From: a phage
NCBI GenBank assembly: GCA_024683775.1
Contig: GCA_024683775.1_4106.1
DNA: 64,000 bases
Direction: 5' to 3' (one strand)
The notes beneath the pieces were generated by a model, which made no database searches, was not told the origin of the DNA, and saw only the letters and a list, made by a program, of their open reading frames with translations. Shown piece after piece: positions 21,846 to 61,010 of the stretch. A program made the translations under genes and the position numbers. Every line of letters starts with the position of its first letter. Within the stretch, counting starts at the first letter, position 1.

Positions 21846-22006
<161 letters not shown>

Positions 22007-22010
<4 letters not shown>

Positions 22011-22167
22011 CACATGAAGAATGGATGAATGACATTAATTTTAGATATTCGGGTATCGGTAAATGGCTAAAGTATCATTGGGAATTCATTTCAGAGCCAC
22101 ATCTGTATGATAAACTTATCAACGATCCAGCATATGAAATGTACTTAATTGAACTACTGGTACGAAT

Positions 22168-22171
<4 letters not shown>
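22007..22171 (+). CDS. 54-aa 'MTHEEW' family protein, tandem copy 2
   Basis: ATGA overlap upstream. Nearly identical to copy 1 over the first 19 codons. Confidence 0.5.
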
Positions 22172-22763
<592 letters not shown>

Positions 22764-24123: not shown

Positions 24124-24258
<135 letters not shown>

Positions 24259-24262
24259 AATC

Positions 24263-24352
24263 GGTCCCGTTGCCTAGCGTCCGAAGGCAGCCGACTCATA
24301 ATCGGTCACAGTTAATGACACACCACTGGTTAGAATCCAGTCGGGACCACCA
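24263..24352 (+). tRNA. tRNA with CAT anticodon (Met/Ile2 type) carrying an ~18 nt variable region and a TTA T-loop
   Basis: Acceptor GGTCCCG/CGGGACC plus A plus CCA. D-arm GCCT...AGGC. Anticodon arm GCCGA-CTCATAA-TCGGT. T-arm ACTGG-TTAGAAT-CCAGT. Confidence 0.6.
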
Positions 24353-24356
24353 ATTA

Positions 24357-24429
24357 GACTCTGTAGTTCAGTTGGTAGAACGCTTCACTCATAATGAAGA
24401 AGTCGCTGGTTCAATCCCAGTACTGACCA
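24357..24429 (+). tRNA. tRNA-like (CAT anticodon) with a non-complementary acceptor stem; possible pseudogene
   Basis: Canonical D-arm GTTC-AGTTGGTA-GAAC, anticodon arm CTTCA-CTCATAA-TGAAG and T-arm GCTGG-TTCAATC-CCAGT. The 5' GACTCTG cannot pair with the 3' ACTGACC. Confidence 0.35.
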
Positions 24430-24438
24430 CAAAAAAAA

Positions 24439-26136
<1,698 letters not shown>

Positions 26137-26206: not shown

Positions 26207-26236
26207 TTGAAATGTGTTCAAAAAATGTGGTATAAT
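26207..26236 (+). promoter_or_regulatory. sigma70-type promoter with an extended -10
   Basis: TTGAAA at 26207-26212 and TGgTATAAT at 26228-26236. Confidence 0.5.
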
Positions 26237-26262: not shown

Positions 26263-26484
<222 letters not shown>

Positions 26485-26493
26485 TCAAAATTC

Positions 26494-26575
<82 letters not shown>

Positions 26576-26584
26576 TAAAACAAA

Positions 26585-26668
26585 TGGTAGTTAGCATATC
26601 GGCCTTATGCAACGGACTGTTAATCCGTGTCAGAAATGACAAGACTGGTTCGACTCCAGTACTACCAG
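26585..26668 (+). tRNA. tRNA-Asn (GTT) carrying an extra variable-arm hairpin
   Basis: Acceptor TGGTAGT/ACTACCA. D-arm GCAT...ATGC. Anticodon arm ACGGA-CTGTTAA-TCCGT. 15-nt variable region with a GTCA-GAAA-TGAC hairpin. T-arm ACTGG-TTCGACT-CCAGT. Confidence 0.7.
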
Positions 26669-26733
26669 CAAAACAATCATGAACCTCGGAACAATAAATA
26701 ATATCATACAGGATATTATGAGGTCTAAGGTTC

Positions 26734-27276
26734 ATGGGACGAAAACAATCAGAAGAAACACGTAAAAAAATAGCTGAATCATTAAAGGCTAAAAGTTCTA
26801 AATTACCAGAGAATGAAATAATTCAAAAATATTTAAATGGTATGCCAATTTACGGTTTAGCCAAAGAATATAAGTGTAATAGATCAAGAATAAATGATAT
26901 CGTTGAATCACATGGTGTTAAACGACCAAAATCAACCAATGAAATGCGATTTTGTGAAATACACAATAAGAATTATGAATTAAATTCACAAGGTAAATGG
27001 AAATGTTTAAAATGTGACAGTCAACGTGTTTCTGATAGACGTAGAAAATTAAAAATACTAGCCGTTGAATACAAAGGCGGTTGTTGTGAAAAGTGTGGAT
27101 ATGATAAATGCATTGCCGCATTAGAATTCCATCATGTTGATCCTTCACAGAAAGATTATTCAATTAGTCAAGAAGGTGCAACTCGTTCTTTTGAAAAAAT
27201 TAAAATAGAACTGGATAAATGTATTATGGTTTGTGCAAATTGTCATCGTGAGATTCATGATGATGAACGACAATAA
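26734..27276 (+). CDS. HNH endonuclease with a NUMOD3-like N-terminal DNA-binding motif
   Basis: 'GRKQSEETRKKIAESLK', 'CEKCGYDKCIAALEFHHVDPSQKD' and 'CANCHREIH'. Confidence 0.8.
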   Translation: MGRKQSEETRKKIAESLKAKSSKLPENEIIQKYLNGMPIYGLAKEYKCNRSRINDIVESHGVKRPKSTNEMRFCEIHNKNYELNSQGKWKCLKCDSQRVSDRRRKLKILAVEYKGGCCEKCGYDKCIAALEFHHVDPSQKDYSISQEGATRSFEKIKIELDKCIMVCANCHREIHDDERQ

Positions 27277-27279
27277 TTT

Positions 27280-27549
<270 letters not shown>

Positions 27550-60312: not shown

Positions 60313-60600
60313 ATGTACGCACTGTATAATAAAGAAAAGAAACAATTTGCTAAGGTTGAAAAATCGATTGATACATTTGGCATGTTTAAGTACTGTATTG
60401 TGACGGACCCATATGCTAACTTGTATTACGTTCTTGATGACGTATCAGTACTGCAACGATTGCTTGAACGTTCCAAAAGCCAATGCCAAGGTATCCATGA
60501 TGGTTCAACTTATGAAACACCTGAGTGTTCCTATGGCTATCTGGATGGGTATGAGATTGTGAAGTTGGGTGCATTGTTGAATAAATGGATTAAACAATGA
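60313..60600 (+). CDS. hypothetical protein
   Basis: ATG at 60313 directly after the upstream stop. Confidence 0.5.
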   Translation: MYALYNKEKKQFAKVEKSIDTFGMFKYCIVTDPYANLYYVLDDVSVLQRLLERSKSQCQGIHDGSTYETPECSYGYLDGYEIVKLGALLNKWIKQ

Positions 60601-61010
60601 AGAAGTGTATCACGTGTAATATTGAAAAAGACATTAGTGAATTTGGTATAAGAAGTGATACTGGGAAACATAGAAATACATGCAAAGGTTGTAGTAATAT
60701 TACCAGTAAGAGAACCAGAAATAAAAAAACTGATGTAAAAACACTTGAAGAAATCAAAAGAAAAAATAAAGATTTCATGACCAGAGTTAAATCATTTTAT
60801 GGTTGTAGTGTTTGTATGATGAAGTATCCAGAATGTTTAGACTTTCACCATCTTGACCCTAATACCAAAGAACATACACCAAGTTCTATGTTCAGTAAAA
60901 GTCGAGAATCTATCAAAGATGAAATTCGAAAGTGTATGATTCTTTGTTCTAATCACCATCGCATGGTACATTCTGGTAGACTATGTTTGATTGAAAGAAA
61001 AAAGGGTTGA
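60597..61010 (+). CDS. HNH endonuclease
   Basis: 'CSVCMMKYPECLDFHHLDPNTKEH' and 'CSNHHRMVHSG'. The stop TGA lies inside the cassette TTGACT. Confidence 0.8.
   Translation: MKKCITCNIEKDISEFGIRSDTGKHRNTCKGCSNITSKRTRNKKTDVKTLEEIKRKNKDFMTRVKSFYGCSVCMMKYPECLDFHHLDPNTKEHTPSSMFSKSRESIKDEIRKCMILCSNHHRMVHSGRLCLIERKKG

Follow-up and report, generated by a model that had tools for sequence, protein, structure and literature searches.

The subject of this analysis is a gene for an asparagine tRNA with the anticodon GTT (tRNA-Asn(GTT)), found at positions 26585-26668 (+) of a 64,000-nucleotide stretch of phage DNA (contig GCA_024683775.1_4106.1 of GenBank assembly GCA_024683775.1), the whole of which is referred to below as the window. 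The phage is an Asteriusvirus, one of the 121Q/PBECO4-like jumbo phages of Escherichia coli, with about 34% G+C and nearly all genes on one strand. The gene is 84 nt long including the discriminator base G73, and was recognized by ARAGORN (as tRNA-Asn(gtt), 26585-26669), by Rfam, by folding and by direct reading of the sequence. Its parts are as follows.

26585-26591 and 26661-26667 (+), acceptor stem, TGGTAGT/ACTACCA, with TA after the 5' strand and the discriminator G at 26668
26594-26597 and 26607-26610 (+), D stem, GCAT/ATGC, closing a 9-nt D loop, ATCGGCCTT, with GG inside
26612-26616 and 26624-26628 (+), anticodon stem, ACGGA/TCCGT, preceded by A; loop CTGTTAA with the anticodon GTT at 26619-26621
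26629-26643 (+), variable region of 15 nt: GTCA (26629-26632), GAAA (26633-26636), TGAC (26637-26640) and an unpaired AAG (26641-26643)
26644-26648 and 26656-26660 (+), T stem, ACTGG/CCAGT, with the loop TTCGACT

The initial annotation of this DNA had described a tRNA-Asn(GTT) with four perfectly paired standard arms and a 15-nt variable region folded into a 4-bp stem with a GNRA loop. All of its coordinates and pairings proved exact when checked against the sequence, ARAGORN and Rfam, and the GTCA-GAAA-TGAC hairpin was recovered in the lowest-energy fold, a five-arm cloverleaf of -28 kcal/mol (z = -3.26; 1 of 200 shuffles as stable). The variable segment folded alone gave a z of -4.4. The Rfam tRNA model RF00005 matched over its full length (1-71) with 47.5 bits against a gathering threshold of 29 (E = 5e-7), 12 of the extra bases being aligned as an insertion at the variable position. 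Every stem is perfect Watson-Crick, and U8, A14, G18G19, U33, A37, the T-loop TTCGA and G73 are intact; the cloverleaf, U33, a purine at position 37, GGTTCGA and a score above the gathering threshold, by which an RF00005 tRNA is recognized, are thus all present. The discriminator is followed by CAA, and no CCA is encoded. The gene is almost certainly a real tRNA.

Asparagine tRNAs are canonically class I, with a variable loop of 5 nt. The window gene has a paired variable region of at least 10 nt, as is usual for class II tRNAs (15 nt, 4 bp, GAAA loop), and carries the anticodon of an amino acid, asparagine, that is not among the class II isoacceptors (Leu, Ser, bacterial Tyr and Sec).

Covariation and amino acid identity of the long-arm tRNA-Asn

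Relatives of the gene were gathered in a set of distinct tRNA-Asn sequences, 107 of them long-arm and 104 short, and covariation was assessed in 35 distinct homologues with 15-nt variable regions, aligned with MAFFT and fitted to no structure. The initial annotation had regarded a class II-like arm as unexpected for tRNA-Asn. The outcome supports the extra helix as a genuine arm, with changes on both sides, and thus compensation, at all 4 of its 4 pairs among the 35 homologues. The three inner pairs were formed in 33-35 of the 35, and paired cells made up 88.6% of the extra helix, 87.9% of the D stem and 90.6% of the acceptor stem. When the partners were slid by 1-3 columns as a control, pairing over the whole structure fell to 34-46%. 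Among 95 distinct long variable regions, 59 different stems were seen, and 54 of the regions ended in GNRA tetraloops (GAAA in 36). A shuffle test of the length of the variable-region stem, with at least 3 bp reached in 89% versus 60%, gave modest discrimination, and column-wise covariation is the stronger evidence of the two. Because its pairs covary in relatives, the arm is, as judged from these alignments, a selected RNA helix, and we regard it as very likely both that the helical arm is under selection and that the window gene is a member of this long-arm tRNA-Asn family.

The D arm also separates the two types. G9 was found in 49 of the 107 long genes versus 7 of the 104 short ones, and a 3-bp D stem with a 13-22 mismatch in 48/107 versus 10/104. 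Both belong to the core of class II tRNAs, and the family further resembles the bacterial ones (Leu, Ser, Tyr) in its long stem-loop variable region. The geometry of the arm (a 3-4 bp stem with a 3-nt 3' tail) comes close to that of bacterial tRNA-Tyr, and GNRA-capped arms occur in tRNA-Ser too. Unlike class II tRNAs, the family has the asparagine set (GUU, G73 and mostly U1-A72), and in the window gene the D arm is still of the class I type (A9, 4 bp). The idea that the family goes back to one class II ancestor drew no clear support from a nearest-neighbour test of the D arms, whose results were heterogeneous: the nearest neighbour was a Ser, Tyr or Leu tRNA for 28 of 84 distinct long-arm D arms, and the others were scattered. 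No single origin can therefore be claimed. Descent from a duplicated tRNA-Tyr gene of the same phage was rejected, as tRNA-Tyr and long-arm tRNA-Asn share little beyond universal positions in phages Gravdalen, Stubb, CC31 and KPV15.

The identity set of E. coli asparaginyl-tRNA synthetase (AsnRS) consists of the anticodon G34-U35-U36 and the discriminator G73, all of which are present in the window gene (GTT at 26619-26621, G at 26668). Among the long-arm genes, G73 was found in 105 of 107 and U1-A72 in 71 of 107, as in short tRNA-Asn, and the 2-71 pair was not conserved (C-G in 48/107, G-C in 42/107). Relative to enterobacterial tRNA-Asn, a reference confirmed over 76/76 positions in a Klebsiella phage record annotated tRNA-Asn, the anticodon arm and the T arm of the window gene are each 16/17 identical. 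As the family keeps GUU, G73 and mostly U1-A72, charging of the window tRNA by AsnRS is the most likely outcome. Following transcription from the phage tRNA cluster, the molecule would be matured by host RNase P, 3' trimming and, because no CCA is encoded, the CCA-adding enzyme; host AsnRS would then read GUU and G73 and charge it, and it would serve as an elongator decoding AAU and AAC. Asparagine codons make up 5.9% of open reading frame (ORF) codons in the window of this AT-rich phage.

Spread of the family

A search of phage records with the window tRNA alone as query returned related tRNA-Asn genes in at least 217 records from several unrelated lineages, the long-arm type being the majority among the matches listed. 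The following genera carry a hairpin in the variable region of tRNA-Asn.

Jiaodavirus, T4-like (example KPV15), 11-15 nt hairpin
Karamvirus, T4-like (example CC31), 11-15 nt hairpin
Winklervirus, T4-like (example Gravdalen), 11-15 nt hairpin
Novosibvirus, T5-like (example Stubb), 11-15 nt hairpin
Phapecoctavirus (example ESCO5), 11-15 nt hairpin
Alcyoneusvirus (example Muenster), 11-15 nt hairpin
Asteriusvirus (the window itself), 15-nt hairpin-forming variable region

Wider scans were made with a long-arm-only pattern (GGACTGTTAATCC, a gap of 15-30 nt, then GGTTCRA) and with a version in which the gap was widened to 6-30 nt. The long-arm-only pattern matched at least 120 IMG/VR contigs. With the wider pattern, 15 of the first 120 viral matches listed were of the long type (about 12%, or roughly 1 in 8 of those with that anticodon stem). 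In 185,579 bacterial and archaeal species genomes (one genome per species), the long-arm-only pattern found just 38 stretches, a figure that counts pattern matches. A long tRNA-Asn was recognized by ARAGORN or by our own parse in about 20 of the 38, mostly inside tRNA arrays with 7-36 genes in 8 kb, as in Micromonospora. The viral and cellular scans thus place the long-arm form strongly in mobile elements. An exclusively viral family is ruled out by a few long-arm genes that adjoin housekeeping genes. The pattern scans were anchored on a single anticodon-stem sequence, GGACTGTTAATCC, which every homologue taken from them has, and statements on conservation of the anticodon arm are biased accordingly. 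No copy was found in 5,426 complete E. coli genomes or their prophages, in a search sensitive to near-identical copies only. As far as these sequences tell, the long-arm tRNA-Asn is a large and diverse family carried mostly by phages and by the tRNA arrays of mobile elements.

One chromosomal match was of another kind: in Azoarcus (locus L163, 114-200 (+)), the long variable region of the tRNA-Asn is an 11-nt tandem duplication, TCCGTAGGTCA, and not a hairpin; a mutation or an error of assembly is the likely cause. Long variable regions were also seen in other isotypes. Among class I genes called by ARAGORN in the viral loci L007-L126, lengths of at least 80 nt were found for 10 of 45 Cys, 9 of 14 Ile(TAT), 8 of 46 Thr(TGT), 8 of 116 Met and 6 of 49 Trp genes, and expansion of the variable region may be general to viral tRNA arrays.

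Annotation of long-arm copies is inconsistent: the copy in phage WPEC5 is unannotated, some listed records have no tRNA feature, and one is labelled tRNA-Cys. Many GenBank records annotate relatives of the window tRNA as tRNA-Asn, and the genes are therefore already in databases. No description of a class-II-like tRNA-Asn was found in the full-text literature, although journals outside the searched library could hold one; a dedicated study of the tRNAs of phage Sf14 remarks only that its tRNA-Asn scores poorly on isotype models. The family is apparently undescribed.

The endonuclease cassette and neighbouring genes

The tRNA-Asn gene lies beside an endonuclease gene in a segment with the following features.

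26494-26572 (+), tRNA-Met(CAT) with an enlarged 12-nt D loop (ARAGORN; Rfam, 54.2 bits), 12 nt upstream of the tRNA-Asn gene
26575-27288 (+), cassette of about 0.7 kb holding the long-arm tRNA-Asn and an HNH endonuclease gene, delimited by homology boundaries and by the copy in Klebsiella phage Muenster
26698-26719 (+), 8-bp perfect inverted repeat, ATAATATC/GATATTAT, immediately ahead of the ribosome-binding site and start codon (ATG) of the HNH gene, kept in Muenster
26734-27276 (+), HNH homing-type endonuclease gene, 180 amino acids, 65 nt downstream of the tRNA-Asn gene

The product of 26734-27276 matched the HNH endonuclease family phrog_2255 (E = 4.5e-31), with weak Pfam matches to HNH and NUMOD3, and the gene is annotated as an HNH endonuclease in Muenster and WPEC5. 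The cassette is 79% identical to that of Muenster, and the tRNAs of the two phages differ in the D arm only. Other Asteriusvirus genomes cease to match the window at about 26575-26584, and backbone homology to Asteriusvirus UE-S1 is back at 27292; the cassette can therefore be said to occupy an ordinary tRNA-Asn slot, which in UE-S1 holds an unrelated, ordinary 75-nt tRNA-Asn. Among Asteriusvirus genomes its presence is sporadic, being confined to the window and WPEC5, an isolated, propagating phage that is 100% identical over 26440-26760 and provides the sole public phage record with an identical tRNA. The marks of a free-standing homing endonuclease cassette, namely an adjoining ORF, patchy presence and sharp boundaries, are all found here. 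The cassette is probably mobile, and the tRNA-Asn and the HNH homing-type endonuclease would have arrived together as one 0.7-kb unit.

The association with this HNH subfamily was examined with a local HNH-domain profile, which found 26 ORFs in all fetched loci, 25 of them in loci with at least two tRNAs. A tRNA-Asn was the immediate neighbour of 13 of the 25, and 12 of those 13 were long-arm; random placement among the gaps between tRNAs would give 4.7 tRNA-Asn neighbours (P about 7.5e-5), a statistic with some ascertainment bias because the loci had been chosen around tRNA-Asn genes. In about 88% of long-arm loci, no HNH gene of that subfamily adjoins the tRNA, and the subfamily also adjoins ordinary short tRNAs of other isotypes as well as short tRNA-Asn. 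A comparable arrangement is known from the T4 segB and T5 heg genes, in which an endonuclease gene sits among tRNA genes, is sporadic and replaces the neighbouring tRNA allele. T4 SegB also has its preferred site within a tRNA-Asn gene; it differs in being a GIY-YIG enzyme, whereas the window has an HNH one, and its site excludes the variable loop.

Several further arrangements involving this subfamily were seen. One viral contig (locus L071, 6815-7570) has a long-arm tRNA-Asn, an HNH gene and a short tRNA-Asn in that order, so that both alleles flank one endonuclease gene. A Solirubrobacteraceae bin (locus L150, 4051-6605 (-)) carries, in this order, a dnaG primase gene, an HNH gene belonging to the subfamily and a long-arm tRNA-Asn (GTC-GAAA-GAC), and may represent a chromosomal tRNA-Asn locus invaded by a cassette. 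The window itself holds a second ORF of the subfamily at 60594-61007 (+) (phrog_2255, E = 1.5e-32), distant from any tRNA gene. The inverted repeat at 26698-26719 may be a translational or processing signal. The tRNA-Met(CAT) at 26494-26572 and the tRNA-Asn are probably co-transcribed, and a strong promoter-like site with 11/12 matches and a TG extension was noted at 26207-26236.

A GTCA/TGAC pairing had also been proposed initially for the enlarged variable region of another tRNA with a CAT anticodon (24263-24352 (+)). This pairing did not hold up: it can be drawn only nominally, as it borrows G42/U43 of the anticodon stem, the 18-nt variable region contains no supported helix, and the lowest-energy fold sacrifices the anticodon stem. 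In the homologues of Erwinia phage Kaldavass and of Xanthomonas phages XbC2 and XaC1, the 5' strand reads AATA or ATTA without compensation, and the arm was accordingly rejected. The primary sequence ACAGTTAATGACACA of this tRNA is kept in Erwinia and Xanthomonas jumbo phages. Compared with those homologues, the window copy has a G-to-T change in the D loop and a C56-to-A change in the T loop, which may amount to a swap of the tertiary pair G19-C56 to U19-A56.

A second CAT tRNA follows at 24358-24430 (+), where Rfam matches model positions 8-63 only and the acceptor stem is poor. Upstream lies a class II tRNA-Ser(ACT) with A34 (24164-24255 (+)), identical in UE-S1; at the corresponding place WPEC5 has a different tRNA-Ser, with the anticodon GCT. 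AGT and AGC account for 2.18% and 0.43% of ORF codons in the window. A 565-amino-acid ORF at 24439-26136 (-) stands on the minus strand amid a plus-strand region; it matches nothing in Pfam, and UE-S1 has it as a hypothetical protein. At 21846-22332 (+) there are three tandem, overlapping, paralogous ORFs of 54 amino acids (MTHEEWM...), for which the UE-S1 and WPEC5 records list three genes of 165 nt.

Possible roles of the arm

The reading of the arm preferred here starts from defence systems that attack host tRNAs. The nuclease AriB of the PARIS system depletes E. coli tRNA-Asn(GUU) and cleaves it, as a secondary target, between positions 40 and 41, and the tRNA-Asn of phage T5 helps to neutralize PARIS (PMC12409363). 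The T5 tRNA-Tyr is, by a secondary account, resistant to retron-Eco7 through its distinctive variable loop (as cited in PMC13096335). Like the T5 anti-defence tRNAs (Lys, Thr and Asn against PARIS AriB; Tyr against retron-Eco7 and Septu), the window gene is the phage isoacceptor of a host tRNA attacked by a nuclease, namely tRNA-Asn(GUU), the AriB target. The T5 tRNA-Asn is nonetheless unlike it, being a class I tRNA of 75 nt plus CCA with anticodon-arm substitutions that include the AriB site, whereas the window gene has retained the anticodon arm of the host and gained a further arm. Through this arm the phage tRNA-Asn would differ in structure from its host counterpart, so that activities directed against the latter would leave it untouched; AsnRS, for which the variable region is not a recognition element, would still accept it. 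Candidates for such activities are nucleases of defence systems, AriB of PARIS among them, colicin-E5-like enzymes and a phage's own host-tRNA-degrading activity. By analogy with these systems, a role of the arm in discrimination or escape is conceivable and is offered tentatively. A fuller version appears somewhat more doubtful still, in which the arm is a structural self/non-self mark in an arms race: the tRNA would keep the host-type anticodon arm, and with it normal AsnRS recognition and decoding, and would escape an AriB-like or other nuclease directed against host tRNA-Asn by added architecture and not by point substitutions, the allele being spread by a tRNA-Asn-preferring HNH endonuclease between unrelated phages and occasionally into chromosomes. 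Taken together, a working elongator tRNA-Asn of class-II-like build, with five arms of which the extra one acts as a discrimination mark, is the explanation that best covers the whole, and we consider it plausible while placing it short of probable.

Several observations weigh against this reading. The AriB site, T-A-A-T-C-C at positions 36-41 (U36-AAUC|C41), is the same in the window and the host; with the cleavage context unchanged, the known escape from AriB by stem substitutions is not present in the window gene. The window D loop also differs from that of the host, with C at position 16, and since a U16-to-C change in tRNA-Lys impairs AriB and the D loop is a modelled AriB contact, this difference could explain escape without the arm. 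Short tRNA-Asn genes with a host-like anticodon arm are frequent in enterobacterial phages (Kuttervirus and others), so the arm is no general requirement, and the T5 tRNA-Asn is itself an ordinary short tRNA. The class II core is lacking in the window copy, which has A9 and the 4-bp D stem GCAT/ATGC, and the few chromosomal long-arm genes beside housekeeping genes stand in ordinary contexts. The idea that the arm substitutes for anticodon-stem mutations was rejected: the short alleles of T5 and UE-S1 have diverged in the anticodon arm, but those of Kuttervirus and other phages are host-like.

The arm could instead be a historical legacy without a special role, a tolerated trait of an old, horizontally moving viral tRNA-Asn lineage that may stem from a class II tRNA (for example from tRNA-Tyr by GUA to GUU and A73 to G73); the tRNA would then merely supply asparagine decoding to an AT-rich genome, and the covariation would reflect a need to keep the insertion harmlessly folded. 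The share of asparagine codons, the shape of the arm (stem of 3-4 bp, 3' tail of 3-4 nt) together with the third or so of D arms (28/84) that are Ser-, Tyr- or Leu-like, the interchange of long-arm and short alleles at one Asteriusvirus locus and the commonness of short host-like tRNA-Asn in other phages all agree with such a legacy. It accounts less well for the contrast between about 12% of viral tRNA-Asn with this stem and 38 pattern-matched stretches in 185,579 cellular species genomes, for the persistence of the trait over very divergent tRNA bodies and host phyla, and for an arm that is not derived from the same phage's tRNA-Tyr, and we regard it as an unlikely alternative, albeit a serious one. 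Selection could also act on the DNA, if the HNH endonuclease cut the canonical tRNA-Asn genes of rival phages or of hosts and the 10-nt arm insertion made the linked allele uncleavable; the cassette would spread by gene conversion, and a hairpin would simply be the form in which the insertion leaves the tRNA functional. Such a selfish allele fits the sharp cassette boundaries, the sporadic occurrence in Asteriusvirus with a close copy in Muenster, the tRNA-Asn neighbours of 13 of 25 HNH ORFs (12 long-arm, 4.7 expected) and the dnaG-HNH-long tRNA-Asn order in the Solirubrobacteraceae bin, and it has a precedent in T4 SegB, which cuts preferentially inside the tRNA-Asn gene of T2L and drives exclusion of the region (PMC2330249). 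It is made rather improbable by the 88% or so of long-arm loci without an adjoining HNH gene, by T4-like genera that carry the long-arm allele with no endonuclease annotated alongside in the records examined, by the position of the same HNH subfamily next to short tRNAs of other isotypes and short tRNA-Asn, and by the bias towards tRNA-Asn in the choice of loci. SegB itself was rejected as a direct model of arm-based immunity, since its site, 27 bp counted from the start of the T arm, leaves the variable loop outside.

An altered or dual identity, in which seryl-tRNA synthetase or another synthetase for class II tRNAs charges the molecule and serine is inserted at AAY codons, is suggested by the Ser-type marks G73, G2-C71 and C11-G24 of the window tRNA and by the mischarging of class II bodies with class I anticodons that is generally known from the nev-tRNAs of nematodes and from bacterial allo-tRNAs. 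Those molecules share with the window tRNA a long variable arm and a class I anticodon; they keep Leu or Ser (or Ala) identity and are mischarged, whereas the identity of the long-arm tRNA-Asn matches its own anticodon. What is conserved in the family is the asparagine set (GUU, G73, mostly U1-A72) and not a serine one, the 2-71 pair varies, and the arm is short (3-4 bp; 4 bp in the window) and has a 3' tail of 3 nt as in tRNA-Tyr, whereas the arm of bacterial tRNA-Ser is longer, at 5-7 bp. Wide retention in lytic phages also speaks against a toxic mistranslator, and altered identity is very improbable. No more credit is due to a non-functional pseudogene or tRNA-like remnant carried along with the endonuclease: phage tRNA genes are often dispensable, this one is unannotated in the WPEC5 record and no CCA is encoded, but the five helices are perfect, the universal tRNA positions listed above are intact, the Muenster copy departs from it in the D arm alone, at 79% identity of the cassette as a whole, and compensatory changes run through the family.

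To our knowledge, the textbook class II tRNAs are those for Leu, Ser, bacterial Tyr and Sec only. The analysis indicates that a class I isoacceptor, that for asparagine, has a widespread class-II-like form that is backed by covariation and concentrated in phages and mobile tRNA arrays. The link with a homing endonuclease suggests how tRNA alleles travel between unrelated phages. If the arm does act as a discrimination mark, counter-defence by phage tRNAs would gain a new route, a structural one, and the molecule would provide a ready-made orthogonal scaffold that is still accepted by AsnRS.

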